A DNA stretch of 64,000 nucleotides from an uncultured virus (IMG/VR IMGVR_UViG_3300032334_001252) (lineage: Duplodnaviria > Heunggongvirae > Uroviricota > Caudoviricetes): the IMG/VR virus record IMGVR_UViG_3300032334_001252. One strand, written 5' to 3'. Made by a program: the position numbers and the translations under genes. Positions within the stretch are counted from its first letter, which is position 1. Every line of letters begins with the position of its first letter. This document shows, one piece after another, positions 9,213 through 54,342 of the stretch. The notes under the pieces were generated by a model, which saw only the letters and a program-made list of their open reading frames with translations, searched no databases and was not told where the DNA came from.

Positions 9213-9446
9213 TTATACCATCCTCATTAATAAGTGTCCGTTGCTACCCCAATAAAACTGAATAGTATCTTTTGTCCACACCCATTGTTTGTAGTCGTAC
9301 TTATCAATAATATTATCTTGAGGCAAAGATATTGGGGTATCCCCGTCGTCTATAATTTCTATATTTAAATTTCCACTATCAGGATCTAAACGGAATCCAT
9401 AAAATACTTTATCAGCTAAATCCGTTCCTTCATAAAAGCCACCCAT
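9213..9446 (-). CDS. hypothetical virion-associated protein
   Basis: Tightly packed in fibre operon. Confidence 0.55.
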   Translation of the reverse strand: MGGFYEGTDLADKVFYGFRLDPDSGNLNIEIIDDGDTPISLPQDNIIDKYDYKQWVWTKDTIQFYWGSNGHLLMRMV

Positions 9447-9766
9447 TATGAAACTCCTTGTAGTATGGAAAAGACAACATCTATGCTACTATCTACTTTT
9501 GACGAAACGATTAATTTGTCGCTAGTTGCAAGTACAAGTTTGTTGCCTTTCATTAATTCGAATGGTTCACCACTCTCTATTCTTTTATCTTTGTGGATAT
9601 AGGTATCTACTCCACCTCTACGCATTTTAATTGTAATAGGAACTGTTGTAGATAACAAATTTGTAATACTACATCCAATCACAATTGATTTGTCTACTGC
9701 ACTAAAAGTCTCTACTTCAGTAGTACCTACAGCGCGCGAAATTGCATTTGTAAATGTTGTTGCCAT
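9446..9766 (-). CDS. hypothetical virion-associated protein
   Basis: Beta-rich, overlaps neighbour in fibre operon. Confidence 0.6.
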   Translation of the reverse strand: MATTFTNAISRAVGTTEVETFSAVDKSIVIGCSITNLLSTTVPITIKMRRGGVDTYIHKDKRIESGEPFELMKGNKLVLATSDKLIVSSKVDSSIDVVFSILQGVS

Positions 9767-9769
9767 ATG

Positions 9770-10210
9770 TTACCCCAGTGCAATTGCCATAACAATGGCT
9801 TTTTCTGTTGCTATTTGTTCGGTAAGTGCACTTCCGCCACCACCGCCACTTGACAATGAAGTTATAGCACCCTGACTATTTTTATAGTATAATACTCCGT
9901 CCGCAGTATTTAATGCTAGTTCACCGTCTTCTAAATCTGCAGGAGTAGGAATTTTTCCTGCTACGTTACTTCGTCTAACTTGTACTTTTAATTTTACGTC
10001 AACTGTAATTACAATTCTGGTGCCACCGCCAATGATTGCAATACCATTAGCATAGCTAGTACCAGGATTAGTGATAGTTATGATACCATTATTAATACTG
10101 ATCCTAGCATCGCCATTTCCACCGTTTACTACTATATCTGTTTGTCCATTAAAAGACGCAATAGTATCATATTGTACAGCGGAAGTAATTGGACCTGTCA
10201 ATGTTGTCAT
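9770..10210 (-). CDS. small fibre-associated protein
   Basis: RRS...GKIP...L..GELALNTADG.LYYK fibre-shoulder motif; ends MAIALG. Confidence 0.65.
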   Translation of the reverse strand: MTTLTGPITSAVQYDTIASFNGQTDIVVNGGNGDARISINNGIITITNPGTSYANGIAIIGGGTRIVITVDVKLKVQVRRSNVAGKIPTPADLEDGELALNTADGVLYYKNSQGAITSLSSGGGGGSALTEQIATEKAIVMAIALG

Positions 10211-11832: not shown

Positions 11833-12419
11833 CTTGTCACCTCGGGTACTAATGTTAAGTTACCTACTAAGAAACTCAAAATATTATTAGCACTGTCAAA
11901 CAATTCTACAGAATATACAGCAGTACTAAAATTAAACGTTTGTGTAACATTGCCTAAAATAGTAATTGTAATAGTCTTGTATGTATTGTTTAACACAATC
12001 TGTCCAGCAGCACTAGTTGCTTCGTAAATTACAGTAGGGCTATCGACTGTTTCGCGAATTTGCATTCTAGCATTATAGTTTGCTAAATCAACAGGTTGAT
12101 TATATTCAATAACTCCACCACTAGTATATGCGGTATAAGCTAAACTATTAACTTGATTTATTGTTATACCGGTTGAAGTAGTGCTAGTTGCTATATGGTA
12201 TGTATCCGAAGTTGGGTATAATTCTTTCATACCACCACCGGCTACCTTAAATCGCCACCCTACAGGCAATGTGTGCGGCGAAGTAGTTGTAATTACGCAA
12301 GGAGCACTTTTAGCAATTGCTGAAATTGGGGCATAAACTTTGGTTTCTGATTCCCAGCGATATGTCTCTTGAAAGGTGCTGCCTTGATAAATTTTATAAT
12401 TAAGTTTTGCGGGTTGCAT
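11829..12419 (-). CDS. putative fibre adaptor/structural protein
   Basis: IYQGSTF...DL..Y.ARMQIR...PEVTR pattern; first gene after a strong promoter. Confidence 0.6.
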   Translation of the reverse strand: MQPAKLNYKIYQGSTFQETYRWESETKVYAPISAIAKSAPCVITTTSPHTLPVGWRFKVAGGGMKELYPTSDTYHIATSTTSTGITINQVNSLAYTAYTSGGVIEYNQPVDLANYNARMQIRETVDSPTVIYEATSAAGQIVLNNTYKTITITILGNVTQTFNFSTAVYSVELFDSANNILSFLVGNLTLVPEVTR

Positions 12420-41325: not shown

Positions 41326-42612
41326 CTAAATTGTATAAGTGTATAGTGCATAACGAACCGCATCAGCCATGTGACTGTAACGATCATGCAGTGGTCGTTC
41401 GCGCTGTAAGTTCTCGCGATCATCCCAACGGTACTGATCAAACATTGCACGCACGTTAGTACAGTGTGGTGCTACCTTTAAACGACCTTGTTGCACTAAG
41501 GTTTGTACGTATGCAATACCTGGTAATACATCTTTTTTGGCTTTGGTGGTTGAAATGTTGTATAGGTAGGCTAAATCACTGGCAAATTGTGCGGCAGCAC
41601 TATCTATAAACGTAACTTCAACTCCATGTTTATTATTAAACTCTGCGAACGCTTCAGCGTGCTGTTGTGTAGTTTGTTCTGCTTTTAGGTATTCGTCTAC
41701 TACATAGAATGTATCGCGACCCCAGTCGTATACAATTACCACAAATGCAGTTTCGTCACGATAGCCTGGATCACAGCCAGCAATAGCTTCACCTTTCAAG
41801 TCGTCAGGAGGTTCTACTACATCCGATTCGTTAAGGGCATAAATTTGACCCTCAAATGTAGTGAACGATGCCAAGTACTCTTGTTCAAATTCAGCTTTTG
41901 ACATAGATCTGCGTGCTTCAGCCACATCCGATTCTGCCATGCGGGTGTTTTCGGTGTAGTCTGCCTGCAATGAAATCCACTCAGGAAAGTTGGGATCAAA
42001 GCCGCGATTCCAAAACTGCGAAAACCAGTTGTTGCGGCCGCGGGGGGTACTGATGAATATGGCCTTGGCGTTTGGCTTGTCCAATGTAGGTCTGAGCGCA
42101 ACATTAAAGGCAGCTTCACCACCTTCACCCAATGCGGCCTCGTCAAATATAATTAAGTCGTAACTGCGTCCTACAGTAGAGTCCACTGTGCTTAGTGAGC
42201 CCATGCGGATGGTAGAACCATTTTCCAGTTCAATAATTTTGTCCTTTAAGTTGTCTCTGGCAACTTCCAAATCAAAATGCTTGATTAGCTTACGCTGCAG
42301 TTCAAACGAAATGCTGCTCAAATTGTAATTTGGAGAAATGATTAGTACATTCGAGCCAGGTACAAGTGTTACCAGCTGCCCAATAATATTAGCAATGTAA
42401 GTTTTGCCCAATCGTCTGGCGAGTGCAGCACAGATAAACCTGTATTTAGGATCATTAACTGCGTTGATCAATGCAACTTGTGGGCGATTAATGGTATCCC
42501 ATACATTGAGCAGTTTAAGATAGTTTGTGATGGGCAGCTTAATAAACCGCTGTTGAGGGTCGAAGTCAACTATAGTGTCTACATTGACGTCTGGTCTTGA
42601 TACTACTAGCAT
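41326..42612 (-). CDS. terL: terminase large subunit
   Basis: ARRLGKT Walker A, IIFDEAA Walker B, ISTPRG, DPG, H.ADA.RYA. Confidence 0.96.
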   Translation of the reverse strand: MLVVSRPDVNVDTIVDFDPQQRFIKLPITNYLKLLNVWDTINRPQVALINAVNDPKYRFICAALARRLGKTYIANIIGQLVTLVPGSNVLIISPNYNLSSISFELQRKLIKHFDLEVARDNLKDKIIELENGSTIRMGSLSTVDSTVGRSYDLIIFDEAALGEGGEAAFNVALRPTLDKPNAKAIFISTPRGRNNWFSQFWNRGFDPNFPEWISLQADYTENTRMAESDVAEARRSMSKAEFEQEYLASFTTFEGQIYALNESDVVEPPDDLKGEAIAGCDPGYRDETAFVVIVYDWGRDTFYVVDEYLKAEQTTQQHAEAFAEFNNKHGVEVTFIDSAAAQFASDLAYLYNISTTKAKKDVLPGIAYVQTLVQQGRLKVAPHCTNVRAMFDQYRWDDRENLQRERPLHDRYSHMADAVRYALYTYTI

Positions 42613-42893
42613 TATTTAGTACAGGTTCTTTCACGATAAATTTTACCGTCAGGTTGTTGGATTTCAGTCCAAGCTGTACACGTTTCTTGAGGCACTGTTT
42701 GCTGAATAACGATAGGTTGTGATGGTTTAGTAGCTTCATAAACTACTACACCTCCAACGATTGCTGGAACCATCCAATACCAACGATCACCTTGATAACG
42801 CCAGTGTGGTCCTTGAAATCCATGGTGGTGATAGTGTTGTGCAAAGGCTAGTGTGGGGAATAGTGCTAATACTAATAATAACTTTTTCATCAT
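42612..42893 (-). CDS. exported small protein with signal peptide
   Basis: MKKLLLVLAL..AFA signal, His-rich segment, Cys pair. Confidence 0.6.
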   Translation of the reverse strand: MMKKLLLVLALFPTLAFAQHYHHHGFQGPHWRYQGDRWYWMVPAIVGGVVVYEATKPSQPIVIQQTVPQETCTAWTEIQQPDGKIYRERTCTK

Positions 42894-43363
42894 ACGCCTT
42901 CTCCACTAATTAATTGTTGTACCAACTTACCATACTTGCTACCTTCTAATCCCTCATTGATCTGAACGTTAACTTGCTTTTGTGGTCCAGTTTGGGTGCG
43001 TGCTTTTTCTAGTTGGATTTCTCTATCCAACAAGTCCATAGACATTTTATGTGACATTTGCAGCAATTCTGCAATGTCTTTAGTAGAACCCATTTGTGAT
43101 TCTTCTAGTTCTTGAAATTTTTGTTTAATGAGAGCATCCATTGCTCTGCGCATAAGAAATCTGTTATTGTATCCCGAATCAAAAAATACACTATCAATGT
43201 ATCCTTTAACTTCGCGTTTAGCTAAAATGTTGGTAACAACTTCTGGGTCAATTCCCAGTTCGTCGGCAACTTGTCTAGCATCATTCAATTGTAGATAAGC
43301 ATTGGCTACTTCCAGTGCCTCGGGAGAAATACGTACAGTTTCGGCTGGTAGGTGTGTAGTCAT
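42890..43363 (-). CDS. terS: terminase small subunit (T5-like)
   Basis: ISPEALEVA.AYL HTH, REVK.YID.VF.D.GY; upstream of terL. Confidence 0.8.
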   Translation of the reverse strand: MTTHLPAETVRISPEALEVANAYLQLNDARQVADELGIDPEVVTNILAKREVKGYIDSVFFDSGYNNRFLMRRAMDALIKQKFQELEESQMGSTKDIAELLQMSHKMSMDLLDREIQLEKARTQTGPQKQVNVQINEGLEGSKYGKLVQQLISGEGV

Positions 43364-43521
43364 AAGTCCATCCTTTTTATAGAGTATATCAGGTTAGGGA
43401 AAGTTTTGCAAGTGTAGATTTTGGCACCTTTAGTGTTTGGGGATTTTTCTTATAGGCCACGTGACGGGGGGCCACCGTGACAGTTAGAAATCAGTAGTCT
43501 AATAACCGCCCTGGTGGTCCG

Positions 43522-43558
43522 TGTCAATAGGTACATACCCTAATGTTGTATTTGTGCA
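43522..43558. repeat. pre-early intergenic repeat copy 1 (partial)
   Basis: TGTCAATAGGTACATACCCTAATGTTGTATTT. Confidence 0.8.
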
Positions 43559-43649
43559 AATATAAAAATAAATGTTGACGCGTGAGGTGATCGCATATAT
43601 AATAGAGGCTTAGATTGATTGATTGACCTTTAACACTGGAGAATGTAAC

Positions 43650-43973
43650 ATGACTGCAAAGACTGTAAACTATACCCCTGAGCAAACTGCTAAGATGGTA
43701 GCTGACTATCAAGCTGGCGTTAGCGTTGATGCTCTCGCTCAAGAGCTGGGTAAGACTGTACGCTCTATCGTTGCGAAGCTATCGCGCGAAAAAGTATATC
43801 AGGCTAAGACCTATGTGTCTAAGACTGGTGAAACACCTATCAAGAAAGATGTTCACGCTGATTACATCGGCATGGCATTGGGCTTGACTGAGGCTGATAC
43901 AGAATCGCTCACTAAGGCTAACAAGACTGCGCTCGCTAAGATCGTAGATTTTATCAAGGCTGAAAAGACCTGA
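43650..43973 (+). CDS. T5 A2/D3-like HTH DNA-binding protein (paralog 1)
   Basis: NYT.EQT...Y....LA..LG..RSI.AKLS...Y; ESL.KAN; GGAG RBS. Confidence 0.8.
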   Translation: MTAKTVNYTPEQTAKMVADYQAGVSVDALAQELGKTVRSIVAKLSREKVYQAKTYVSKTGETPIKKDVHADYIGMALGLTEADTESLTKANKTALAKIVDFIKAEKT

Positions 43974-43979
43974 TAGATG

Positions 43980-44008
43980 GTAGGGGCTTTATGCCCCTAC
44001 TCTTTTTT
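43980..44008 (+). terminator. intrinsic terminator
   Basis: GTAGGGGC-TTTAT-GCCCCTAC followed by T-run. Confidence 0.8.
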
Positions 44009-44025
44009 GTGCTATAATATACACT

Positions 44026-44352
44026 ATGCAAAACCTTAACGATTACATTAAATTTTTGGGCTTAACAAAACCTGTTGTTGTGCGTATCAATTCACGCACA
44101 CACAAGGCATGGGATGGTTACTACATCGCACGCTATAACAACAAGGGTAAGCTAGCAGAACATCGCATTACTGTATACTTGCAAGATCAAAGCAGGGACT
44201 TTAACACTATACTTGCACATGAGCTAATTCACGCATGGCAAGAAGAAAATGGGCATACAGAATTTCACGGCAAAGAATTTAAACGAATTGCTCGCAAAAT
44301 GGAAAAGTCTTTTGGTCTGGTAAATATTTACATAAAAGGGACTGATGTCTAA
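44026..44352 (+). CDS. SprT-like zinc metalloprotease
   Basis: LAHELIHAWQ...HGKEF. Confidence 0.75.
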   Translation: MQNLNDYIKFLGLTKPVVVRINSRTHKAWDGYYIARYNNKGKLAEHRITVYLQDQSRDFNTILAHELIHAWQEENGHTEFHGKEFKRIARKMEKSFGLVNIYIKGTDV

Positions 44353-44379
44353 TTTGGCAACTGTTGCATTTTTGCAACA

Positions 44380-44449
44380 GGCGCCAATTATACCATGTAT
44401 AATTGGGCGTTGTCAATAGGTACTTTCCCTAATGTTGTATTTTTACACA
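44380..44449. repeat. pre-early intergenic repeat copy 2
   Basis: GGCGCCAATTATA-CCATG-TATAATTGG..TGTCAA TAGGTACTTTCCCTA ATGTTGTATTTTTACA. Confidence 0.9.
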
Positions 44450-44486
44450 CTTGACTTTTTTCCTGAAATTCTGTTATAATAAACCT

Positions 44487-44615
44487 ATGAAAACACAAAC
44501 TTACACCGAAAAACAAATTGCAGAATTTGCAAAATTTTGCTTGCGTCATGACTTAAAATTTGCTACAATGGCAGAATACAATGGCGCAATTGCTCAATAC
44601 TTTTTAGAGGATTAA
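44487..44615 (+). CDS. small hypothetical protein (42 aa, probably leaderless)
   Basis: MKTQTYTEKQIAEF...; ATG 6 nt after TATAAT. Confidence 0.6.
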   Translation: MKTQTYTEKQIAEFAKFCLRHDLKFATMAEYNGAIAQYFLED

Positions 44616-44616
44616 A

Positions 44617-44919
44617 ATGTTTACAGAATACACAACTATTGACCAAATGCAATCTACCATTTGGGATTTTTATAAAGATGTTCACGGATTCCGTCCTAGA
44701 CACTTTACACAACAAGAATGGGATTCAAGAGAATTCTTGCAAAAAGAATTTGACAATCTTTGCAAGATCGTAGACAATATGACACCTGAGCAAAAAATTG
44801 CTGAGGGTTGGGGTTCTGATATTGATTCAGAATTTGACAATGGTTGTGATGGTGATGCTTTAGCCTCTGCGGGTTATGGTACTGATGAAGATTATGGTTA
44901 TGCTGAGGATGTATTATGA
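44617..44919 (+). CDS. acidic hypothetical phage protein
   Basis: D.YKDVHGFRPR and ALASAGYGTDEDY motifs; GAGG RBS. Confidence 0.65.
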   Translation: MFTEYTTIDQMQSTIWDFYKDVHGFRPRHFTQQEWDSREFLQKEFDNLCKIVDNMTPEQKIAEGWGSDIDSEFDNGCDGDALASAGYGTDEDYGYAEDVL

Positions 44920-45008
44920 TTGAATTTAAGTTATACTTTTTAGCGTTTGTTGCGTTTCTTGCGTTTGTTGTGGTTATAATAGCACTTTTAGAATGGATTT
45001 CAAAATGA
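44916..45008 (+). CDS. 30-aa single-TM peptide
   Basis: MIEFKLYFLAFVAFLAFVVVIIALLEWISK; ATGA overlaps at both ends. Confidence 0.55.
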   Translation: MIEFKLYFLAFVAFLAFVVVIIALLEWISK

Positions 45009-45637
45009 TTAAATATACTGGAAACAATTTCGTTAAATTTAAAAAATCTGCCTTTGCTGAATTGATTACAGAATTGACAAAGGTCGAAGGCTACATGATT
45101 GGTCGATGCGACACATTAAATGGTTGCGACTATTGGGGCATTGTTGATGCTGAAGGCGAAGAAAATTGTTTTGTAAATTTAGCGCAAGGGTTATCGGGTG
45201 AAGCGCATGGTGTTACATGGGAACAACTAGCGACTGATTTTCCTCGTTTAATTGAATTGCTAGATGAGCACAATTTGCACTATTACATTGGTAAAAACTA
45301 TGTAGGCAATTGGGGCGTTCATCGTCATATTTATGATGAATCTAGCACAATGAATTTGTGCCTACTGGTAAATGGTAATAATGGCGGTACTGTTAACTTT
45401 CACGAATTTGATAACGAATCAGATTTTGAGGAAATGTCAGACACTCACATTTTTGACCTACACGACAAAGAATTTTCTAGAGATACCATTGTTGAATCGG
45501 TAGACATTAAAGATGGACAATGCTATTCTTTTAATACTGGTAAATGGCACTCGCACATTGTATATGGCAACAGAGCAGAATTATTTTTGCTACATTTTAA
45601 AGATGCGACAGATGTTATAGATTTGATAAATATGTAA
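45005..45637 (+). CDS. cupin/2OG-oxygenase-fold hypothetical protein
   Basis: H.H motif and FNTGKWHSH; start inferred from ATGA overlap. Confidence 0.55.
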   Translation: MIKYTGNNFVKFKKSAFAELITELTKVEGYMIGRCDTLNGCDYWGIVDAEGEENCFVNLAQGLSGEAHGVTWEQLATDFPRLIELLDEHNLHYYIGKNYVGNWGVHRHIYDESSTMNLCLLVNGNNGGTVNFHEFDNESDFEEMSDTHIFDLHDKEFSRDTIVESVDIKDGQCYSFNTGKWHSHIVYGNRAELFLLHFKDATDVIDLINM

Positions 45638-45672
45638 AAAGAAACAAAGGTTCTCGTTTTGAGAACCTTTGG

Positions 45673-45755
45673 GGCGCCAAAATTATATCATATAATTTTG
45701 GGGCGTGTCAAGCTTTTTTTGCTAGGTATTTTCCCTAATGTTGTATTTTTACAAA
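45673..45755. repeat. pre-early intergenic repeat copy 3
   Basis: GGCGCCAAAATTATA-TCA-TATAATTTTGG..TGTCAA..TAGGTATTTTCCCTAATGTTGTATTTTTACA. Confidence 0.9.
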
Positions 45756-45825
45756 TTTGCAAATTTTTTGTTGTGTGGGCGTTTTTCGTGCTATAATCTA
45801 CACATACAAACAAGGAATGATCTAA

Positions 45826-46302
45826 ATGGCTAAAATTACAAAGGTTTCAATATATGACATGGATGGCACAATCGTTGATTCACTGCATCGGTATCGTACT
45901 ATCGTTGATGCCAATGGCGAACGAATTGATCTCAATTATTGGAGAGAAAACGAATATCGGGCAATGGATGATTCACTATTGCCACTCGCAGAACAATACA
46001 AGCGAGATCTCGCAGATCAAAATTGTTATGTTATTATTGCTACTGCCCGTGTTCTTCGTTCCGCTGATAATCAATTTATTAGCGAGATTTTAGGCGAACC
46101 CGATTATATCATTAGTCGCAATGATGGATCGACAATATCAGGCGGTTTGCTAAAAATTAATGGTTTAGCAAAATTCTTCAATTTGATAACTTTCAAAGAT
46201 GCTGAATTTACTTTTTATGAGGATAATGTAGACTATCTCAAAGCGGTTTGCGATAGGTTTAATATTCGTGGCGTTTATGTTCCATCAAAACAAGGACACT
46301 AA
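45826..46302 (+). CDS. dmp: HAD-family deoxynucleoside-5'-monophosphatase (T5 Dmp-like)
   Basis: DMDGTIVDSLHR, LLPL, ATAR, FYED; pre-early context. Confidence 0.75.
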   Translation: MAKITKVSIYDMDGTIVDSLHRYRTIVDANGERIDLNYWRENEYRAMDDSLLPLAEQYKRDLADQNCYVIIATARVLRSADNQFISEILGEPDYIISRNDGSTISGGLLKINGLAKFFNLITFKDAEFTFYEDNVDYLKAVCDRFNIRGVYVPSKQGH

Positions 46303-46305
46303 AAA

Positions 46306-46383
46306 ATGATTACAACAATTTGCGTTATTGCATTTATTTTGGTAAAATTTGCATTGTTAGAATTTTTTGTGAAAGGACACTAA
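46306..46383 (+). CDS. 25-aa hydrophobic peptide
   Basis: AAGGA RBS; MITTICVIAFILVKFALLEFFVKGH. Confidence 0.45.
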   Translation: MITTICVIAFILVKFALLEFFVKGH

Positions 46384-46386
46384 AAA

Positions 46387-46536
46387 ATGATTCGTGTTAT
46401 ACTTGGCTTTTTGATAATCTTTGGTGCGGTTGGCGGTTTGGACAATGACCAAGATTTGCTCAATTGCATAATGGTTGCCATTTGTGGAATGTTCCTAATG
46501 GCATGGGGCGCATTTGATAAAAACGCAATGCGATAA
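46387..46536 (+). CDS. 49-aa two-TM peptide
   Basis: AAGGA RBS; MIRVILGFLIIFGAVGG... Confidence 0.55.
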   Translation: MIRVILGFLIIFGAVGGLDNDQDLLNCIMVAICGMFLMAWGAFDKNAMR

Positions 46537-46542
46537 TAATTA

Positions 46543-46569
46543 TCAAAATGAGAATGATTCTCATTTTGA
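46543..46569. promoter_or_regulatory. Fur box (perfect palindrome)
   Basis: AATGAGAATGATTCTCATT inside a 13-1-13 palindrome; extra GATAATAATTATC just upstream. Confidence 0.75.
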
Positions 46570-46641
46570 GGCGCCAAAATTATAGCATATAATTTTGGGG
46601 CGTGTCAATAGGGGTTTTCCCCTATGTTGTATTTTTACAAA
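46570..46641. repeat. pre-early intergenic repeat copy 4
   Basis: GGCGCCAAAATTATA-GCA-TATAATTTTGG..TGTCAATAGGGGTTTTCCCCTATGTTGTATTTTTACA. Confidence 0.9.
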
Positions 46642-46700
46642 TTGTGTGTCGGTCGCAATTTTTGTGATATAATTAAGCTCTTAACAACTGGAAAGCTCAA

Positions 46701-47396
46701 ATGGCTAAAAAACAATTCTTTGCAATTCTCGACACGGAAACTACCATTAATGATACTGTTGCCGATTTTGCAATTGTTATTTGTGATCGCACTGGTCGCA
46801 TTTATAATCAATGCGCGGTTTTAGTCGCTGGACATTATAACACAATGGAATTATTCCACGATAAAAATAATAATGATATTTGGGGTTATGAGGGTTTGAA
46901 TAAACGCAAAGCGGGTTATACTGCTATGCTTGATAATGGCGTTCGCATGATTGCTTCAGTTAATGCAATTAATAAATGGATTAATCAAGCCATTGGCAAA
47001 TATAATCCTACACTTACTGCATATAATCTTGCATTTGATTTGGCTAAATGCTCAAATACTGGTATTGATTTATCAGGTTTTAATGAGAAATTTTGCTTAT
47101 GGCAAGCAAGCATTGGCAATATTTGCAAAACTAAAAAATACAAACAATTTTGCTTAGATAATCACGGTTTTAATAATGTTACTAAGCATGGTAATATGAC
47201 ATTCAAAACTAATGCTGAGATGGTTTGCGGTTTTATTAATAATAATCTTATTACTGAGCCACATACTGCGCTCGAAGATGCTAGAGATTTTGAATTGCCT
47301 ATTTTGACAAATATTATTAAAAAACGTAATTGGCAAGATAATATTATTCCTTACGATTGGAATAAATTTCAAGTCAGAGATAATTTTAAGGCTTAA
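46701..47396 (+). CDS. DEDDh 3'-5' exonuclease
   Basis: ILDTETT, AYNLAFD, HTALEDA. Confidence 0.85.
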   Translation: MAKKQFFAILDTETTINDTVADFAIVICDRTGRIYNQCAVLVAGHYNTMELFHDKNNNDIWGYEGLNKRKAGYTAMLDNGVRMIASVNAINKWINQAIGKYNPTLTAYNLAFDLAKCSNTGIDLSGFNEKFCLWQASIGNICKTKKYKQFCLDNHGFNNVTKHGNMTFKTNAEMVCGFINNNLITEPHTALEDARDFELPILTNIIKKRNWQDNIIPYDWNKFQVRDNFKA

Positions 47397-47399
47397 TAA

Positions 47400-47648
47400 A
47401 TGGAAACTATCGGATATATTGGTTCTATTCTTTTGGCAATCTGTGGATTGCCACAAGCAATAGAATCATATAAAACAAAATCAAGCGAGGGATTAACTTG
47501 GGGTTTTATTTTATTATGGTTTTTTGGCGAAATATTTACATTCGCTTATATATTGCCAAAAATGGATTTGCCCCTATTAATTAATTATTCGGCAAACCTT
47601 ATATTTTTGATAATCATTCTTTATTTTAAAATATTCCCCAAAAAATAA
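47400..47648 (+). CDS. PQ-loop / SemiSWEET-like membrane protein
   Basis: GLPQA..Y.TKS..GL; three TMs. Confidence 0.8.
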   Translation: METIGYIGSILLAICGLPQAIESYKTKSSEGLTWGFILLWFFGEIFTFAYILPKMDLPLLINYSANLIFLIIILYFKIFPKK

Positions 47649-47671
47649 CCCTACGGGCAGTAGGGTTTTGG

Positions 47672-47740
47672 GGCGCCAATTTTATCACATAAAATTGGTC
47701 GCTGTCAATAGGTATTTTCCCTAATGTTGTATTTTTGCAC
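47672..47740. repeat. pre-early intergenic repeat copy 5
   Basis: GGCGCCAATTTTAT-CAC-ATAAAATTGG..TGTCAATAGGTATTTTCCCTAATGTTGTATTTTTGCA. Confidence 0.9.
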
Positions 47741-47780
47741 AGACTGGTTTTTTCGTGATTTTTCGGGTATAATTTCAGAC

Positions 47781-48158
47781 ATGGACAGACAGAAATTAGA
47801 ATTGAGATTAAATAGCAAATGTGAAAGCATTTGGGAAACCCTTGCCGAAATGCATGGTAGACTGGTGCGCTTCAATCCGCCAAAAATTGTGCTAGATGCT
47901 AGATTTTGGCGCACTGCGGGAATGTGTCACCAAGACGAAAATTTTATTCGACTAGGCTATAAATTTTTCTTGCACTCGCAAAATTATTGTGATACAATGG
48001 TAAAAATTATTTTACCGCATGAGATCATTCACCAAGCCGATTTTAATCTTTTTGGCGAGAGCGAAAAAAATTGTGGTCATGGCAAAAATTGGTGTAATCT
48101 TATGGTACAATATGGGCTTAAACCCGAAAAGCATCACTCAATGGACATTAAACGATGA
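47781..48158 (+). CDS. SprT-like zinc metalloprotease (second copy)
   Basis: TAG, PHEIIH, HGKNW...M...G; ATG 7 nt after TATAAT. Confidence 0.8.
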   Translation: MDRQKLELRLNSKCESIWETLAEMHGRLVRFNPPKIVLDARFWRTAGMCHQDENFIRLGYKFFLHSQNYCDTMVKIILPHEIIHQADFNLFGESEKNCGHGKNWCNLMVQYGLKPEKHHSMDIKR

Positions 48159-48370
48159 TAAACAAAATTTCATGGCTAGGAACAATTGCTTCAATTATTG
48201 GGGCTTTTGTAGTTGCTTCAAAATTATTTTTGGTAGGCTATTGCTTTTTTATTGTTGGTAGCGTATCATGGCTAATTGTCGGATTTGCTAGAAAAGATAA
48301 TTCGCTGATTGTTTTAAATGGTACTTTTTTTCTAGCGAATATTTTGGGTTTTTATAATTCTGTGGTATAA
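48155..48370 (+). CDS. small multi-TM membrane protein
   Basis: Three hydrophobic segments; ATGA overlap. Confidence 0.65.
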   Translation: MINKISWLGTIASIIGAFVVASKLFLVGYCFFIVGSVSWLIVGFARKDNSLIVLNGTFFLANILGFYNSVV

Positions 48371-48394
48371 TAAATTTTTGAAAGGAAAGTTAAA

Positions 48395-48715
48395 ATGAAA
48401 GCATTGAACTACACTCCAGAGCAAACGCTCGCAATGGTTGCCGATTATCAAAACGGCGTTTCTGTAGAACAAATTGCCGAAACACTTGGCAAAACTGTTC
48501 GTTCAGTTGTTGCAAAATTGAGCCGTGAAAAGGTTTATAAGGCTAAAGAATATATTTCTAAAACTGGCGAAAAACCAGTTAAAAAAGATGTTCATGCCGA
48601 TGCAATTGGCGCAATTTTGCGACTAAATGAAAATGATATTGAATCGCTTACTAAAGCAAATAAAAATGCTCTCAAAGCAATTTTTGATGCATTGGCAAAT
48701 TCAAAGCCAATTTAA
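48395..48715 (+). CDS. T5 A2/D3-like DNA-binding protein (paralog 2)
   Basis: Closely similar to 43650 ORF (NYTPEQT...KLSREKVY...KKDVHAD). Confidence 0.8.
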   Translation: MKALNYTPEQTLAMVADYQNGVSVEQIAETLGKTVRSVVAKLSREKVYKAKEYISKTGEKPVKKDVHADAIGAILRLNENDIESLTKANKNALKAIFDALANSKPI

Positions 48716-48798
48716 AATTATATAACATAATTTTAATAACCCTGCAAATTGCAGGGTTATTTTTTAGCTTAATAACCCTACAACCCGTAGGGTTATTT

Positions 48799-48870
48799 GC
48801 GCCAAAATTATAACATAATTTTGGGGCGCGTGTCAATAGGTACTTTCCCTAATGTTGGCAAAAAACAACA
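48799..48870. repeat. pre-early intergenic repeat copy 6
   Basis: GCGCCAAAATTAT-AAC-ATAATTTTGG..TGTCAATAGGTACTTTCCCTAATGTTG. Confidence 0.88.
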
Positions 48871-48877
48871 CCTAGTC

Positions 48878-48938
48878 TGGCACGATTCTTGCGCCGCGGC
48901 GGCTGGCACGATTATTGCTAATAGCAAGGTTCATGCCA
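48878..48938. promoter_or_regulatory. three sigma54 (-24/-12) consensus sites
   Basis: TGGCACGATTCTTGC (48878), TGGCACGATTATTGC (48904), minus-strand TGGCATGAACCTTGC (48924-48938). Confidence 0.8.
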
Positions 48939-48947
48939 GCAAATCCA

Positions 48948-48966
48948 AATGCGAATGATTATCATT
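48948..48966. promoter_or_regulatory. Fur box
   Basis: AATGCGAATGATTATCATT. Confidence 0.7.
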
Positions 48967-48976
48967 CAGCAAAAAG

Positions 48977-49028
48977 TTATCCACAGGTTATCCACAGAGG
49001 GCAAAAAGTTATCCACAGCTTATCCACA
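48977..49028 (+). promoter_or_regulatory. four perfect DnaA boxes
   Basis: TTATCCACA at 48977, 48988, 49009 and 49020. Confidence 0.9.
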
Positions 49029-49222
49029 GCAGCAGCGCTGCTGCGCCAGTGCAAAAGTGGGAAAGTGGGAAATTTTGAGGTACCGCGTGCGCCCATTATA
49101 TAGTGTAAAACCTAATTTGTCAAGTGTATTTTCGATTCAGGTTGCCTCAAGTGCAAAAATAATCTCTTGATCGATTTTGCAGAATTTTGTATAATTTATA
49201 TATTGATGGAAAGGAAACTGAG

Positions 49223-49354
49223 ATGACAGACAATGAATTTTTTAGGCTGGATCAGGAGCAGTGGTACCAAGATTTTGTGGATGCAGAAGTGTATGAAATT
49301 ATGGCAAGTACTATCCCACACGAAGAAAATTTCTTACTTGATGTTCCCTTCTGA
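49223..49354 (+). CDS. 43-aa acidic peptide ending DVPF
   Basis: AAGGA RBS and upstream TTGATC-17-TATAAT promoter; MTDNEFFRLD...FLLDVPF. Confidence 0.6.
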   Translation: MTDNEFFRLDQEQWYQDFVDAEVYEIMASTIPHEENFLLDVPF

Positions 49355-49406
49355 TCAGTGTATAATTTAATCTTTAACGGCGCAGAAACCAAAACACAAA
49401 GGACAT

Positions 49407-49715
49407 ATGATGACTGACAAAACTGTAAACTATACCCCTGAGCAAACTCAGCAACTCGTGCAAGCCTACCAAGACGGCCAAAGCGTAGAAACTTTGGCAA
49501 TGCAATTGGGTCGTAGCACTCGTAGCATTGTTGCTAAACTGTCACGCGAAGGCGTGTACAAAGCAAAGAGCAAAGCCAGTGGCGTTGCTCGTGTCAAGAA
49601 GGCTGACCTTGTTGACCAGATCGCTAACCGTTGCGGTGTAGCTCCAGAGATTTTCGAATCTCTCGAAAAAGCCAACCACGAAGTGTTGGAAGCAATTGTC
49701 GCTAACTTGCGTTGA
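49407..49715 (+). CDS. T5 A2/D3-like DNA-binding protein (paralog 3)
   Basis: VNYTPEQT...RSIVAKLSREGVY...ESLEKAN. Confidence 0.8.
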   Translation: MMTDKTVNYTPEQTQQLVQAYQDGQSVETLAMQLGRSTRSIVAKLSREGVYKAKSKASGVARVKKADLVDQIANRCGVAPEIFESLEKANHEVLEAIVANLR

Positions 49716-50276: not shown

Positions 50277-50378
50277 CACCTCTGATGAGTACCCTGGGAT
50301 GGGACGAAACTCTAAACCTTGAGGCAACTTTGCTGAGTATTCCCCATACACACGGTTGCATCGGTTTAGGGTCAGGTG
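50277..50378 (+). ncRNA. type I hammerhead ribozyme
   Basis: Stem I CACCU/AGGUG; CUGAUGA; stem II GU(A)CCC/GGGAC; GAAA; stem III ACUCUAAACC/GGUUUAGGGU; GUC cleavage triplet ending 50373. Confidence 0.85.
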
Positions 50379-50791
50379 AAAGAACACCATAAAATACAGC
50401 TATCTTCTAACCAAGAACTGGGTTCACCCAGCAATGTGAGTATGGAATCTTACTAGCGATTGAATAGTGTTGCGCAAACTATTCTATTAATAGCGCACCC
50501 CGACCCTAAACTGCAGAGGGGTCGCAAAAAATTGTCTGCAGGCGCTAAGCACTGAAACTGTAAGCCGACAAAGCCCAAAGTCGATAAAAATGTGGTGGGC
50601 AGTAGTGCCGAACCAATACTGTTAGTCACGGATATCCCGACGACCTTATATGGCAACTGTGGACTGAAACGTGCAGCTTACCTAAATTAGAGCAGACTCC
50701 AATTCACCACTGGCTAAGGCTTTTACCAATTTAGGGTCAGGTAGCTGTGGTGGCTTAAAAATCCTGTTGTGAGCAAAAAACTTCTAGAGTT

Positions 50792-50831
50792 CAAAACCCC
50801 GTACACGTAATGGTGACGGGGTTTTGTTTTT
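50792..50831 (+). terminator. intrinsic terminator
   Basis: CAAAACCCCGT...ACGGGGTTTTG followed by T5. Confidence 0.8.
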
Positions 50832-50955
50832 GGAGCTTGCTGCGCCATTATACCATAGTGCCAAAACTACTGTCAAGTGCGTTTTCAATAACTTGACCCT
50901 AAACCGCAACAATTTGACCGAATTCACGGCACCCGCGACCAATTGTGTGAAGACG

Positions 50956-50994
50956 CAAAAAAGCCTACTTAACTCACATTAAGTAGGCTTTTGT
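50956..50994. terminator. bidirectional terminator after D3-like gene
   Basis: AAAAGCCTACTTAA...TTAAGTAGGCTTTT. Confidence 0.8.
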
Positions 50995-51013
50995 GTTTTT
51001 GGGGCCAATTTGC

Positions 51014-51325
51014 TCAGTTTAGGGTCGATTCTTGCAGTTTAAGTTCAATTAACTTAAGCACCTGCTTATTAACCTTTTCCAAGCTCTCCAACATCTCTTC
51101 GTCGCACCCTAGCAGTGTGGCGATGGTGGCAATATGAGCTGACTTCTTAATTGGCACCTCACCACGCTTGTTGACATACTGCTTTTTGTGGTAGACGCCC
51201 AGAGAGCTCAATTTAGCAATCACACTGCGTTCTGGCACGTCTAAGGTGGTAGCTAGTGTGGCTACAGGAGTTCCACTTTTGTACTGTTCGATCAAATTGT
51301 CTGTAATTTCTTTTGTGTATTTCAT
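51014..51325 (-). CDS. T5 D3/A2-like DNA-binding protein (paralog 4)
   Basis: MKYTKEIT...RSVIAKLSSLGVY...ESLEKVN; follows D2-like gene. Confidence 0.75.
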   Translation of the reverse strand: MKYTKEITDNLIEQYKSGTPVATLATTLDVPERSVIAKLSSLGVYHKKQYVNKRGEVPIKKSAHIATIATLLGCDEEMLESLEKVNKQVLKLIELKLQESTLN

Positions 51326-52101
51326 AATAACCAAGGTAGTTCTGTTTCTAGTGTTTGACTTTTTGTAGCCAATTGTTGTACAGGTTCAGGCTTTTTAAAC
51401 ACATCATGCGGAATTATAGGTTCTGGCATTAAGTCCCAATTGTTGGGATCTAAGATCATGAGTTGATCTCTATGTTTGGGATGTGCTAACCAAATCTGAC
51501 ACAACATAGTTTGTGTTAGTTTAGGAAGATGACCAATCTCAGTATCTTGGATTCCTGTAAGACTCCAAGTACTTTCAGCAGGCTTTTGTTGGCCTGCCTT
51601 TGACCCACTTCTTTGAGTGAGCCCTTGCGTTCTAATTTCCAATAATCTTTCTGACCCTAAATCGCTATAAACCACATCCAATGCAGCCATCAATTCAGGT
51701 TCTAAAATCCACTCCAAATTATTTAGTCCACGCCACTCACTATAACTGATACCTTGATATAATTTTATACCAGCTAAAATTAGTGGAGTAAGACTACTAT
51801 ACTTAGGATTTGCAATTTGCTTTGCGACTAATAAACTTCTCTTGATTCTAGTCAATTTCCACAATTCCTGCTGTTTAGGGTCACTGCAGTTATGTTTTAG
51901 TGTAGCTAAAACATCAATACAACCACTAGGGCCATACATAACCGACCACCTGCCAAAGTTGCCAACAAGTTGGGGCAGCAGCCAAGATTCAAAGCGGTTT
52001 AACTTGTTGTCTTCAGCCCAAAAGTTTAGTTGTTTATCTTGTAGTTTAACAATCTCTTTTAAGTCCAAATATTCAATATCTTGTTTTTTAATTTGTATCA
52101 T
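51322..52101 (-). CDS. T5 D2-like protein
   Basis: C-terminal QIWLA...MILDPNNWD.MPE resembles T5 D2 (from memory); D2-D3 order conserved. Confidence 0.6.
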   Translation of the reverse strand: MIQIKKQDIEYLDLKEIVKLQDKQLNFWAEDNKLNRFESWLLPQLVGNFGRWSVMYGPSGCIDVLATLKHNCSDPKQQELWKLTRIKRSLLVAKQIANPKYSSLTPLILAGIKLYQGISYSEWRGLNNLEWILEPELMAALDVVYSDLGSERLLEIRTQGLTQRSGSKAGQQKPAESTWSLTGIQDTEIGHLPKLTQTMLCQIWLAHPKHRDQLMILDPNNWDLMPEPIIPHDVFKKPEPVQQLATKSQTLETELPWLL

Positions 52102-52130
52102 ATTTTTAAGCGTAGTATTCCTATTTATAG

Positions 52131-52260
52131 GGACTAGTGGATAATCCTAAACGACTTGACCCTAAATTGCAGAAACACACGCTTACGGGAACCCTCGTTG
52201 GAATCGTCCCATATCGAAATGTTTCTGCATTAGACTCTGTCTTTTGAATTCCACTAGTCC
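52131..52260 (-). ncRNA. rod-shaped structured RNA / 5' leader of D2-like gene
   Basis: GGACTAGTGGA/TCCACTAGTCC outer stem, TGCAGAAACA/TGTTTCTGCA inner stem; minus-strand promoter at ~52283-52312. Confidence 0.5.
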
Positions 52261-52437
52261 TTAACTTTTTAAGTTATACTAAATTATATCATAACGGGCA
52301 AATAGTTGGCAAGCTAATTTTTTAGTGAGCAGGTAATTCGTGATTTTTGTAAATCGTAGTTACAAATTTTGTGAATTATAATTATTATAACAGGTTGGGT
52401 GTTATTTAGCAAGTGTTTTAGTGCGGTAGCGGTGCAT

Positions 52438-52791
52438 TTACTTTAGTAATTGTTTTGCCTTGGTGGTAATGTTTTGCTGTGATTTTGTCAAGTCAATGTA
52501 ACCTAGGCTTTCAAGCACTGCTATGATAGCTAATGTATCTTCCAGTTCTGCTACTAAATCTTCCAAATTGGTGGTAGTTCTGTCTGGATGTTTATTGTTG
52601 GCCCCAAACCGCCTAATCTTGCTAACTGCCTGAATGCATTCAGCAGACTCTTCCTGCAATTTGTCTAGTAGGTAATTAGTTTGTGCTTCACGAATTGTGG
52701 TAGGTTGTAACAGTGGTTGTTCTTTAGGTATGTCTTTAATTTGTTCTGGTTTATAATTCATAAGGTCTTGCATTGGAGTAGTATGCATCAT
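52438..52791 (-). CDS. MazG-like NTP pyrophosphohydrolase
   Basis: QEESAE.IQAVSK..RFG...ELED. Confidence 0.7.
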   Translation of the reverse strand: MMHTTPMQDLMNYKPEQIKDIPKEQPLLQPTTIREAQTNYLLDKLQEESAECIQAVSKIRRFGANNKHPDRTTTNLEDLVAELEDTLAIIAVLESLGYIDLTKSQQNITTKAKQLLK

Positions 52792-52984
52792 AGGTGGTTT
52801 CCAATGATGACTAGTGTTAGTGAAATGAGTGTGATTAAGTTAATGGCAACAGCTACCACAAATATGGTTGCCGCTGCTACTATAAGTTGTTTGTAGTCTG
52901 GAGGCATTATAATTCCTTTTTTGTAAATTATATTATAGCACAAATACAAAAAGGATTCAAGTGCAGAGACTTGAATCCTTTTTA

Positions 52985-53140
52985 TTACTTAGGTTTCCGT
53001 TTAGGTCGATCAGGATTAGCTTCCACATCTTGCGGCAGTTTAGGGTCGAAAGTACCTGGCTTTGGTTTAGGTTGATTGTTAGGTACTGTTTCTGGTGGAT
53101 TAATGTGTTGAATAGGTTTATTAGGATCAGGTTTAGCCAT
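52985..53140 (-). CDS. 51-aa Pro-rich peptide
   Basis: GGAG RBS; MAKPDPNKPIQHINPP...KRKPK. Confidence 0.5.
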   Translation of the reverse strand: MAKPDPNKPIQHINPPETVPNNQPKPKPGTFDPKLPQDVEANPDRPKRKPK

Positions 53141-53340
53141 TATGGTTTATCTCCACTAGGAAAAGGCCAGCTAATATCTTCTTTAACTGGCTGTTGGTTG
53201 CCGAACCCAAAAGGGCATTTAGCAATGGGTTCTTGATAAGGTGGTAGCAGTTGATCTTGCGTACTAAAGTAAAACATCAATACTGCTAGTACAATAATAA
53301 AGGTAATTGCAGCAAATGCAATTGTAAGTTCTAGTCCCAT
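53140..53340 (-). CDS. small membrane protein
   Basis: N-terminal TM; WPFP motif. Confidence 0.55.
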   Translation of the reverse strand: MGLELTIAFAAITFIIVLAVLMFYFSTQDQLLPPYQEPIAKCPFGFGNQQPVKEDISWPFPSGDKP

Positions 53341-54029
53341 AATGCCTCGTAATATTTTCCAAATAATCTAAATCCGTTAGTAATGCGATCTTGCATTTGT
53401 TTACGGCCCTCCCAGTCACACTCACGATTACCTGTCAGCTCCATTGTGTAAGTAGCTTCTTCTTTTTGAGTGATAGGATTAAAGAATGTTTTGCCTGTAG
53501 GCACACTTTTAAAGTCACCATACTCACCAGTCCAAAACTGTGCATCCCAGTTGTCATTAGTTTTGCACTCAAATGCAAAGATCATCTCACCAATAGCCCA
53601 ATCCCAACGCTTAAAGTGGTTGTCGTCAATGTCCCACTCATTTTCTTTGGGTGGTGCGCTAGTGCTTTTAAAATTGTCAGGTACATCTTCGTCATCAACA
53701 CAAGGTGCACCCTGCTTAGTAGCCTGCAATTGACGCAGCATAGGCAGTGCAATAAGTGCTAGTGTAGCATCCATTGACCAAGTATCAAACTTATCAATGC
53801 GAACATAGATCTGACGTTTATTGTGACTGTCAATCCAGTTGCACAGTTTAGTTAACCAAGTATCTTTGCCATGTTTGTCTTCTGCAAGCCAAGTACCAAA
53901 TTTATGTACCCAATCAGGCTTGCGAGGAATACCGCACTCGTCTGGTGTTTCTTTTACCCAAAAGCAGAGTGCATTAGCAATTTGATAGGGCCCGATCCAA
54001 TTTGGATACTTTCCAATTTTAACTTTCAT
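53331..54029 (-). CDS. conserved hypothetical phage protein
   Basis: ID..DTWSMD.TLA...LPML; GFRLFGKYY..LWD. Confidence 0.75.
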   Translation of the reverse strand: MKVKIGKYPNWIGPYQIANALCFWVKETPDECGIPRKPDWVHKFGTWLAEDKHGKDTWLTKLCNWIDSHNKRQIYVRIDKFDTWSMDATLALIALPMLRQLQATKQGAPCVDDEDVPDNFKSTSAPPKENEWDIDDNHFKRWDWAIGEMIFAFECKTNDNWDAQFWTGEYGDFKSVPTGKTFFNPITQKEEATYTMELTGNRECDWEGRKQMQDRITNGFRLFGKYYEALWD

Positions 54030-54342
54030 CTAGTTCTCCAAATAATTTTTTATAGTGATAATCTAAATTTAGCTCAGCACGATCAAATACTTCGCTAGGA
54101 GTAGTTAATTCAGGATCTAGACCCTCAACCTCACAAGCCCAGTCACTCAGCACACAACGTGTTTCGTTTGCCATGCTGCGAGCACCTTGTTTATATGCTT
54201 GACGCATCCAAAAGTCCAATACATCAATATCAGTATTAAAACTACGCATAGCAACCATAGCACGATTGCTACCCATATCGGGATAAGGTTCTTCATAAAA
54301 CCATTTAATAAACTCACGATCAAGGTTGTACGGTTGTGTCAT
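54019..54342 (-). CDS. hypothetical protein
   Basis: Packed ORF in minus-strand early operon. Confidence 0.55.
   Translation of the reverse strand: MTQPYNLDREFIKWFYEEPYPDMGSNRAMVAMRSFNTDIDVLDFWMRQAYKQGARSMANETRCVLSDWACEVEGLDPELTTPSEVFDRAELNLDYHYKKLFGELDES

Follow-up and report, generated by a model that had tools for sequence, protein, structure and literature searches.

The DNA of phage T5 stops after its first 8% has been transferred, and the cause of this stop has been a question for decades. The T5 injection-stop signal (iss) is known for its repeats, palindromes and DnaA boxes, and in the available part of the Davison 2020 preprint (10.1101/866236) membrane-bound DnaA was proposed to stop the DNA, DnaA being the only host factor proposed in the literature consulted. 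Candidates for the cause may be offered by a short non-coding array at positions 48735-49125 of the window, by which is meant the whole 64,000-nucleotide stretch of DNA from an uncultured member of the Caudoviricetes (IMG/VR record IMGVR_UViG_3300032334_001252) that was analysed here. The original prediction, made from the sequence of this DNA, saw in the array a candidate injection-stop signal or protein sponge. Judged by its position, by the gene families on its flanks and by the motif grammar that it shares, the array is probably the counterpart of T5 Repeat Region 3 (iss); the further proposal, that it is an injection-stop or boundary element built from host proteins and released by pre-early proteins of the A2 family, is put forward tentatively.

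All of the motifs that had been predicted were present, each in its place, and by shuffles and expected counts the array is far denser in them than chance would allow, named elements filling 315 of its 391 bases. It opens on the plus strand with two tandem hairpins of the form TAACCCT..AGGGTTA (48735-48761 and 48771-48797), the first with a T-run behind it and scored as intrinsic-terminator-like. They are followed by the sixth copy of an intergenic repeat (48799-48867, minus strand), which consists of a palindrome (48799-48827) and a leftward, TG-extended consensus promoter with 12 of 12 matches (-35 at 48836-48831, -10 at 48812-48807). Next come three sigma54-type elements (TGGCAY-N5-TTGC, a -24/-12 pair at canonical spacing), two on the plus strand (48878-48892 and 48904-48918) and one on the minus strand (48924-48938) that forms an inverted pair with the second. 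These match YTGGCACG-N4-TTGCW, which we take to be the sigma54 -24/-12 consensus, and the 64 kb hold four matches to TGGCAY-N5-TTGC, three of them in the array, against 0.40 expected, a count of four being reached in none of 100 shuffles. A Fur-like 7-1-7 palindrome, GAATGATTATCATTC (48953-48967), lies in the conserved context TCCAAATGCGAATG.. and on its minus strand matches exactly a 13-nt core string, used in place of a Fur model, that we take to be the Fur consensus; with at most one mismatch this core was found three times in the window against 0.32 expected.

The right half of the array begins with two units of the form GCAAAAAG-TTATCCACAG-N-TTATCCACAG on the plus strand (48969-48997 and 49001-49029, 97% alike), each with two perfect DnaA boxes head-to-tail and 2 bp apart. 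Exact TTATCCACA occurs four times in the window, always within these two units (48977-49028), against 0.72 expected and with four reached in none of 100 shuffles; DnaA-like 9-mers at one mismatch are not enriched over the window as a whole (25 against 23.6 expected). A perfect 16-nt palindrome, GCAGCAGCGCTGCTGC (49029-49044), was noted by direct reading, and relatives have other sequence at that place. Behind it lies a conserved plus-strand element, GCGCCAGTG.AAA (49043-49075), with AGTGCAAA at 49048 ahead of two copies of AGTGGGAA at 49056-49071 and a further AGTGCAAA at 49150; in itself AGTGSRAA shows no enrichment over the window (16 against 10.6 expected). The array closes with a sigma70 consensus promoter on the minus strand, TTGACA-17-TATAAT (49123-49095, 12 of 12 matches), which fires into it. 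As single-stranded DNA, 48716-49130 folds at a z-score of -6.4 against shuffles.

The sequence of the array is real, since contigs of two runs cross it: an 818-nt contig of run X1 is exact over 48592-49409, and a 722-nt contig of run X2 covers 48704-49427 with 34 differences. A variant that co-occurs in the source-like sample lacks the array or has other sequence in its stead: in one X1 contig, of depth 17 where the full form has 54, position 48713 is joined to 49086, which is consistent with turnover of a cassette. No second cluster of DnaA or sigma54-type sites was found in the 64-kb window, where just one stray sigma54 match, at 63312, lies outside 48.88-49.03 kb. A search of Rfam gave ten weak matches, all far under the gathering scores, so that no known RNA family applies.

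The left terminal repeat of T5 carries the rightward genes T5.011-017, a terminator, the annotated iss (9140-10149, a misc_feature of AY543070) and, after the end of the repeat at 10219, minus-strand genes. The order in the window is TerL/TerS on the minus strand, dmp-like and A2-family genes, the non-coding array and then convergent minus-strand nucleotide-metabolism genes. In both phages, then, a terminator closes the rightward pre-early genes, a non-coding stretch rich in palindromes and repeats comes next, and convergent minus-strand genes follow; in both that stretch holds paired DnaA boxes with a AAGTTATCCACAG flank, Fur-core-like palindromes and distal GTGCAAA-type repeats. A scan of the 121,750 bp of T5 placed all six exact TTATCCACA, all four CTGTAT-N4-ATACAG (LexA-type) and all six Fur-core AATGAKAATCATT in the terminal-repeat non-coding regions, in clusters at ~6.1-6.2 and 9.4-9.7 kb plus the right-end copies. 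Within the first 13 kb of T5, five of the six Fur-core matches (at most one mismatch) fall in the iss, and Fur-like sites are thus not peculiar to the window phage.

Unlike the T5 iss, the window has sigma54-type sites, of which no match was found in the 121,750 bp of T5, and it is without a LexA box and without an inverted partner module, in a clade without A1. Its array measures ~0.4 kb against ~1.2 kb for the T5 region, and its DnaA pairs, all in one direction, are 2 bp apart against 3 bp in T5, the gap that the accessible text of the Davison preprint (10.1101/866236) gives for T5-like phages; the same text describes 'Type 4' T5-like phages that are likewise without the inverted partner module. 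A blind blastn of the cores of the 62 relatives described below and of the window region against T5 and the Vibrio phage 234P1 placed 9 of 28 hits at T5 9546-9722 and one at 234P1 106701-106723, with E-values that are individually marginal (best 4e-4), and most of the other hits came from the promoter part of the queries. The T5 stretch 9400-9720 is conserved in 541 phage records, 410 of which cover at least 80% of it.

Counterpart non-coding regions are present in two T5-like Vibrio phages, 234P1 (MW824415.1, 105.2-106.8 and 109.4-110.8 kb) and VCPH (AP014889.1, 116.5-117.7 and 119.65-120.5 kb), in whose records the sites are unannotated; no paper describing them was found in a literature search. 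Like the window, both carry sigma54-type sites, two of them as an inverted pair, a Fur-like palindrome whose flank is the same, a GnAAAAAGTTATCCACA DnaA unit and AAGTGCGAA-type repeats; unlike it, they have LexA boxes, two mirror modules and A1. VCPH also shares the order TerS, pre-early block, array, its record running from capsid, portal, TerL and TerS on the minus strand through dmp, A1 and A2 to a non-coding region, small genes, a second non-coding region and the record end. When the 113,569 bp of 234P1 were scanned, all six sigma54-type, all five perfect DnaA and all three strict LexA sites were found at 106.4-110.4 kb; a small-gene cassette beside A2 and A1 has a non-coding region on either side, and these two regions hold five of the six sigma54-type sites, the sixth (107568) being inside a gene of the cassette. 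In the 12.5-kb locus of VCPH all six sigma54-type hits fall in its two non-coding regions. The Fur-like palindrome of the window, TCCAAATGCGAATGATTATCATTC, is identical at 21 of 24 positions to that of 234P1, TCCAAATGCGAATGCTTCTCATTG, the corresponding sequences being CCAAATGAGAATAGTTCTCATTTG in VCPH and AAATGAGAATCATTATCATT in T5. Around the DnaA pair the window sequence GCAAAAAGTTATCCACAGcTTATCCACAG resembles the reverse complement of VCPH, GTAAAAAGTTATCCACAGGCTTATCCACTG, with the flank GnAAAAAGTTATCCACAG common to the two and AAGTTATCCACAGACTTATC.. on the other strand in T5. Distal (A)AGTGC(A/G)AA repeats and a terminator are common to the window, T5 and the Vibrio phages, and the GCGCCAGTG/AGTGCAAA/AGTGGGAA element resembles both the AAGTGCGAAATC repeats of VCPH and the GTGCAAATCCGAC repeats of T5, here named DRD after the list in the available part of Davison's preprint (10.1101/866236). 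Between the host-site cluster and the GTGCGAA repeats, 234P1 (L281 6190-6400) and VCPH (L356 ~12150-12330) have tandem repeat arrays that are AT-rich or of the GGCAACTGTTGCGGT type and have no counterpart in the window.

Diversity within the window's own clade was followed in 62 distinct homologous regions, which are mutually related, so that motif counts among them are not counts of independent events, and eight homologous regions, the window included, were aligned. It became apparent that a fixed frame surrounds a variable middle. Invariant in all eight are the palindrome core of repeat copy 6 with its TGTCAA, both tandem sigma54-type elements (TGGCA..TTCTTGCGCC.......CTGGCA.GATT.TTGCT), GCGCCAGTG and the leftward promoter (ATTATA.AGTG ... 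TGTCAAGT); beyond the array the alignment is likewise invariant at the rightward promoter, in the small open reading frame (ORF) and at the start of A2, and the TAACCCT..AGGGTTA hairpins are present in four of the eight (the window, L203, L246 and L249). The segment between the sigma54 pair and GCGCCAGTG differs in each relative. It holds the Fur-like palindrome and the four DnaA boxes in the window, one or two Fur-like palindromes in others (L220, L246), and two or three tandem copies of other motifs in others again (L203, L204, L211, L221). Further motifs seen in this slot (e.g. in L256, L209, L213 and L251) are a lac-operator-like AAGTGAGCGCTCACTT, counted below as GTGAGYRCTCAC, then AGTTAGTGAGCACTTACTAAC in three copies, GTTCATTTTGTGACT in two or three and GAGTACTTT.GTACTAC.

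Strict sigma54-type sites gave 75 hits (76 in a longer stretch) in 32 of the 62 regions, with two or more in 19, and their distance from the A2 gene does not vary; in a subgroup that is further removed there are five to seven of them, on both strands, among them an inverted pair resembling that of the window. Among 72 distinct copies from a loose search, variation is in the spacer and rarely in TGGCA or TTGC, and the spacing is fixed. The Fur-like AATGMGAATSATT gave 25 hits in 20 regions, GTGAGYRCTCAC 15 hits in 14 and AGTGCAAAA 80 hits in 44. Relatives thus share the sigma54-type, Fur-like and AGTGCAAAA classes but not the perfect DnaA boxes, which were found in none of the 62 and are therefore specific to the window's lineage. 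On this comparison the sigma54-type pair is the best conserved part of the array and the DnaA boxes are the least. LexA boxes were not found in the window or in the cores of the 62 relatives, CRP sites were not found in those cores, parS at up to three mismatches was found neither in the window nor in the relatives, and no integration host factor (IHF) consensus was found in 48716-49200. To judge from the motifs, the site classes appear to change with lineage: DnaA, LexA and Fur-like in T5; sigma54, LexA, DnaA and Fur-like in the Vibrio T5-like phages; and sigma54 with Fur-like sites, to which DnaA or other tandem motifs may be added, in the window's clade.

How might such an array act? It would be a non-coding boundary element that acts in cis and closes the pre-early segment on its inner side, a segment presumably injected first and terminally repeated. 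Rightward transcription of the pre-early genes by host polymerase would stop at the two tandem hairpin terminators, and the DNA beyond them would be loaded with abundant host proteins, namely sigma54 or its holoenzyme, a Fur-type repressor and, in the window's lineage, DnaA, with RNA polymerase at the opposing consensus promoter joining the complex. Such a nucleoprotein complex could mark or hold the boundary, pause DNA transfer and insulate transcription until pre-early phage proteins, for which the flanking A2-family DNA-binding proteins are candidates, let the remaining genome proceed. The sigma54 holoenzyme forms a stable closed complex that is silent without an activator, and since such complexes do not fire on their own it would be a plausible clamp. 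With tandem terminators on one side and a conserved opposing promoter on the other, the array would also be a transcriptional dead end. Neither an enhancer-binding protein (PF00158) nor a sigma54 is encoded in any of five near-complete relatives, although a host activator may exist, and with no activator of the phage's own a silent docking site fits better than phage-driven sigma54 transcription. Likewise, that the sites are of consensus grade for host proteins not encoded by T5-like phages, lack gene targets and are exchanged while the frame stays fits a platform for host proteins better than a set of ordinary promoters. In its widest form the proposal would be that T5-like phages end their first-injected DNA with an exchangeable cassette of host sites (DnaA, LexA, Fur-type, sigma54 holoenzyme) that serves as an injection stop or gate, with activator-less sigma54 closed complexes as the clamp in the Vibrio and freshwater lineages and A2-family proteins as the release; this generalisation is speculative and on balance doubtful.

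Several observations weigh against an injection-stop role. A1 is required for second-step DNA transfer in T5, and an A1 homologue (phrog_1745) was found neither in the 64-kb window nor in any of the five near-complete relatives; nor was an inverted partner module like the T5 IRC-spacer-IRD / IRD'-spacer-IRC' found in the window. On these two points the region does not follow T5; the assignment as an injection-stop-type region is supported by comparison as regards position, at the distal non-coding end of a dmp/A2 block beside TerS/TerL as in Repeat Region 3, and as regards the grammar shared with T5 and the two Vibrio phages. Strict sigma54-type sites were not found in 30 of the 62 relatives, and DnaA boxes, the sole element linked to the iss in print, are absent from the cores of all 62 and from the homologous place in 77 loci. 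The form of the Fur-like site that is kept in relatives and in other T5-like phages has GAGAAT and not GATAAT half-sites, and may be an operator for a phage protein. The presence of RpoN and Fur in the host is an assumption, and it is hard to see how proteins on the part of the DNA that has entered the cell would keep the rest out. The terminal-repeat boundary and the physical ends were not located: the related contigs are circular permutations or fragments, the public run data (19 runs) consist of assembled contigs without usable depth steps or read ends, and the contigs of runs X1-X4 that were placed on the window gave no molecule ends. In T5 itself no host factor has yet been demonstrated by experiment, studies of that kind on the sites being described as lacking in the accessible part of the BF23 paper (PMC10644984).

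The most probable of the alternatives is that the array plays no part in DNA transfer and is a regulatory region of the usual intergenic kind, in which the sigma54-type elements are host-activator-dependent promoters into a 43-amino-acid ORF and the third A2 paralog, the Fur-like and DnaA sites are operators that tune these or the sigma70 promoter, and the whole is an insulator or switch between gene blocks. Two of the three sigma54-type sites do face the next genes, terminators and conserved promoters in both directions enclose the array, and upstream of A2/A1 in 234P1 and VCPH a sigma54-type site has a LexA box right beside it, which resembles operator-promoter logic. Like RpoN promoters, the elements have invariant GG and GC parts at fixed spacing; unlike them, they occur in both orientations, as inverted pairs and in up to seven copies, most of the copies having no gene behind them, and the phage has no activator gene. 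Strong sigma70 promoters already serve the downstream genes, and the middle cassette is swapped among close relatives, which would be unusual for a fixed set of operators, so that this explanation is rather unlikely. It is quite improbable that the sites are operators or iterons for phage proteins, for instance the three A2-family helix-turn-helix (HTH) paralogs, and merely resemble host-factor sites. A2-family genes do lie on both sides of the array, the Fur-like palindrome keeps its GAGAAT half-site and its flank (CCAAATG.GAATG) across very different hosts, beyond what Fur would need, and relatives carry other tandem motifs of unassigned reader. T5, however, has A2 and yet no sigma54-type site, the DnaA and LexA boxes in such arrays are exact to what we take to be the host consensus, and the conserved positions of the sigma54-type copies, at fixed spacing, are those that we take to define the -24/-12 consensus.

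The other half of the original prediction, a decoy or sponge, would have the replicated array, in two copies per genome if terminally repeated, titrate sigma54, Fur-type repressors and DnaA off the host chromosome and so reprogramme transcription, iron uptake and replication initiation. Titration as a principle is well known from datA and from the Fur titration assay, the sites are of consensus grade, clustered, in multiple copies and without gene targets, and cassettes that vary by lineage would be expected if the targets track the host. Against this, each factor has only one to seven sites in a genome, and in four lineages the array stays at the place equivalent to the iss, a constancy that a sponge would not need. 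T5-type phages also degrade host DNA early (according to the A1 annotation), which makes titration from the chromosome less needed. A sponge is held to be distinctly unlikely. Like the DnaA-titrating datA locus of E. coli, and with a parallel to the tandem boxes of oriC, the array has a cluster of consensus DnaA boxes outside a dnaA/oriC context; their tandem 11-bp register recurs in many bacterial genomes. Unlike datA, it is without an IHF site, its boxes are not conserved in relatives and they are embedded among the sites of other factors. The same four perfect head-to-tail boxes could make the region a DnaA-dependent phage replication origin, the simple alternative that the original prediction had named, and the tandem form is known from 58 bacterial species and at least 121 viral contigs. 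This is very improbable: the boxes are missing from relatives that keep the rest of the frame, 48714-49085 is missing or replaced in the variant that occurs alongside in the same sample, neither an IHF consensus nor, on reading the sequence, a repeated AT-rich unwinding element accompanies the boxes, and the available part of the Davison preprint (10.1101/866236) places the T5 origins near the genome centre. The motif CAGCAGCAG beside the last DnaA pair was considered as the DnaA-trios of an unwinding system and rejected, since it is followed by a GC-rich palindrome and not by an AT-rich tract. The 58 species that carry the exact tandem form belong to many phyla, and it gives no clue to the host.

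New in the array is that sigma54-type, Fur-like and DnaA sites stand together within one short stretch. The cassette-like turnover seen across the 62 relatives, the concentration of Fur-core matches in the iss of T5 itself and a clade that keeps the frame without A1 are new as well. The original prediction knew of no sigma54 or Fur sites in such a signal, and this stands so far as a full-text literature search turned up no publication that describes sigma54, Fur or LexA sites in an injection-stop signal (Davison 2015, Heusterspreute 1987 and Wang 2005 are outside its coverage, so that an earlier description is possible); it needs amending for Fur, five Fur-core matches being present in the T5 iss. 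The words Fur, sigma, RpoN, LexA and SOS do not occur in the portion of the Davison 2020 preprint (10.1101/866236) that was available. If the assignment to Repeat Region 3 is right, the equivalent region in distant T5-like phages keeps its position and frame and changes the host-type sites that it carries, with sigma54-type and Fur-like sites outlasting DnaA boxes and with T5 concentrating LexA-type and Fur-core sites there too. A region described vaguely as repeats and palindromes would thereby become a short list of named host-protein candidates, for which cultured models exist in T5 (E. coli K-12) and in 234P1 and VCPH (Vibrio), and the T5-type pre-early architecture would extend to a clade of uncultured phages that is abundant, lacks A1 and has genomes of ~100 kb.

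The genes around the array support the placement beside T5. TerL (41326-42612, minus strand), at the start of a leftward late/structural operon that directly abuts the pre-early-type block, is followed by a short intervening ORF (42612-42893, minus strand) and by TerS (42890-43363, minus strand), recognised by its similarity to 234P1 TerS (37% identity, E 2e-21). The rightward block of small genes with its six intergenic repeat copies (43515-48867, plus strand) begins beside TerS/TerL and ends at the array, and most of its genes are preceded by a promoter-like site. It includes the first A2-family paralog (43650-43973, plus strand), a dmp homologue (45826-46302, plus strand), a 231-amino-acid ORF with no family match (46701-47396, plus strand) and, from a Pfam search, two SprT-like genes, a PQ-loop protein and others. 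The dmp homologue was found by tblastn with T5 dmp (E 1e-11) and matches phrog_415, as T5 dmp does; it is 31% identical to the annotated dmp of VCPH. Three paralogous HTH proteins of ~105 amino acids match phrog_1725 (E 1e-6 to 2e-4), a family that also takes in T5 A2 (E 4e-52) and a 'putative DNA-binding protein' of 234P1 (E 5e-27). The second of them (48395-48715, plus strand; phrog_1725 E 6e-5, with a weak BLASTP match to T5 A2 at E 0.002) is the last gene ahead of the array. To the right of the array lie a rightward promoter from the promoter scan that is conserved in the aligned relatives (49167-49195, plus strand), the conserved 43-amino-acid ORF (49223-49354, plus strand), a second promoter and the third A2 paralog (49407-49715, plus strand; phrog_1725 E 1e-6), beyond which the convergent minus-strand nucleotide-metabolism genes begin. 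The first 39 nt of paralogs 1 and 3 (43650-43688 and 49410-49448) are 92% identical as DNA, the proteins diverging further on, and many public contigs break or branch precisely at 49410-49448.

The other copies of the intergenic repeat begin at 43515, 44404, 45710, 46596 and 47696, the sixth being counted from 48824 in this series. Five of the six, the copy at 43515 being the exception, carry the palindrome GCGCCAAAATTATA.CATATAATTTTGG.. and a leftward TTGACA-18-TATAAT with a rightward promoter after it. The leftward promoter, which opposes the rightward genes, has 12 of 12 matches in four copies and 11 of 12 (TAAAAT) in the copy at 47696; antisense transcription and polymerase trapping are possibilities for its role. 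A second Fur-like palindrome, TCAAAATGAGAATCATTCTCATTTTGA (46543-46569), is intergenic ahead of repeat copy 4 and has GAGAAT half-sites like the form in relatives.

The window is metagenome-derived, and its bases 1-43363 hold a leftward structural operon with tail fibre, tape measure, major tail protein, a protease-capsid fusion, portal, TerL and TerS. TerL matches phrog_2 and is 51% identical to the TerL of Demerecviridae/T5-like Vibrio phages (~113-117 kb), among them 234P1, which is classified in the Demerecviridae. The major tail protein matched 908 phage records, led by organism name by Vibrio (357), Salmonella (270), Escherichia (131) and Klebsiella (80). Related IMG/VR contigs are numerous, with confirmation of 133 of 137 candidate stretches for one protein and of 700 of 713 for a second, and the records of the near-complete relatives are of 98-128 kb. 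From these TerL and major tail protein matches and the many IMG/VR relatives, the phage is, on sequence grounds, a siphophage of a distant, uncultured T5-like clade. The DNA of the array region had no match among 50,697 phage records, the A2-like and 231-amino-acid proteins had none among phage records either, and the nearest record (G001) does not extend over 40-58 kb of the window. The fusion is a single 654-amino-acid ORF at 37173-39137 that matches both prohead-protease and major-capsid families, which are two separate genes in T5-like Vibrio phages.

With regard to the genome ends, the VCPH record carries one copy of the pre-early block. Two candidate termini among relatives were rejected: the end of one contig (G002) merely wraps within the block near repeat copy 5, and the 'direct terminal repeat' of another (G006) is a 127-bp assembly overlap inside a tandem repeat. 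In T5, TTGACAAGTG (10194-10203, 121725) occurs once per terminal repeat, 25 nt from the repeat end, and both the conserved CTTGNCAAGTG(C)AAAA element of the clade and TTGTCAAGTG of the window (49117-49126) resemble it. The TTGACAAGTG/CTTGNCAAGTG likeness is within chance for a pattern of nine specified bases and was rejected as evidence; an element of the TTGACAAGTG type may mark the repeat boundary.

At least 121 viral contigs (loci L002-L122) contain the tandem DnaA-box pair GTTATCCACAGNTTATCCACAG, and at 26 of these loci a TerL-like ORF, 24-29% identical to that of the window, lies within the 4-kb flank. Finally, the motif TTGACCCTAAA(C/T)(C/T)GCA and its complement have ~10 occurrences on both strands at 50356-54133, among the minus-strand early-type genes, and occur also in a distant relative (L273); this motif may be a phage-specific promoter or regulator site.

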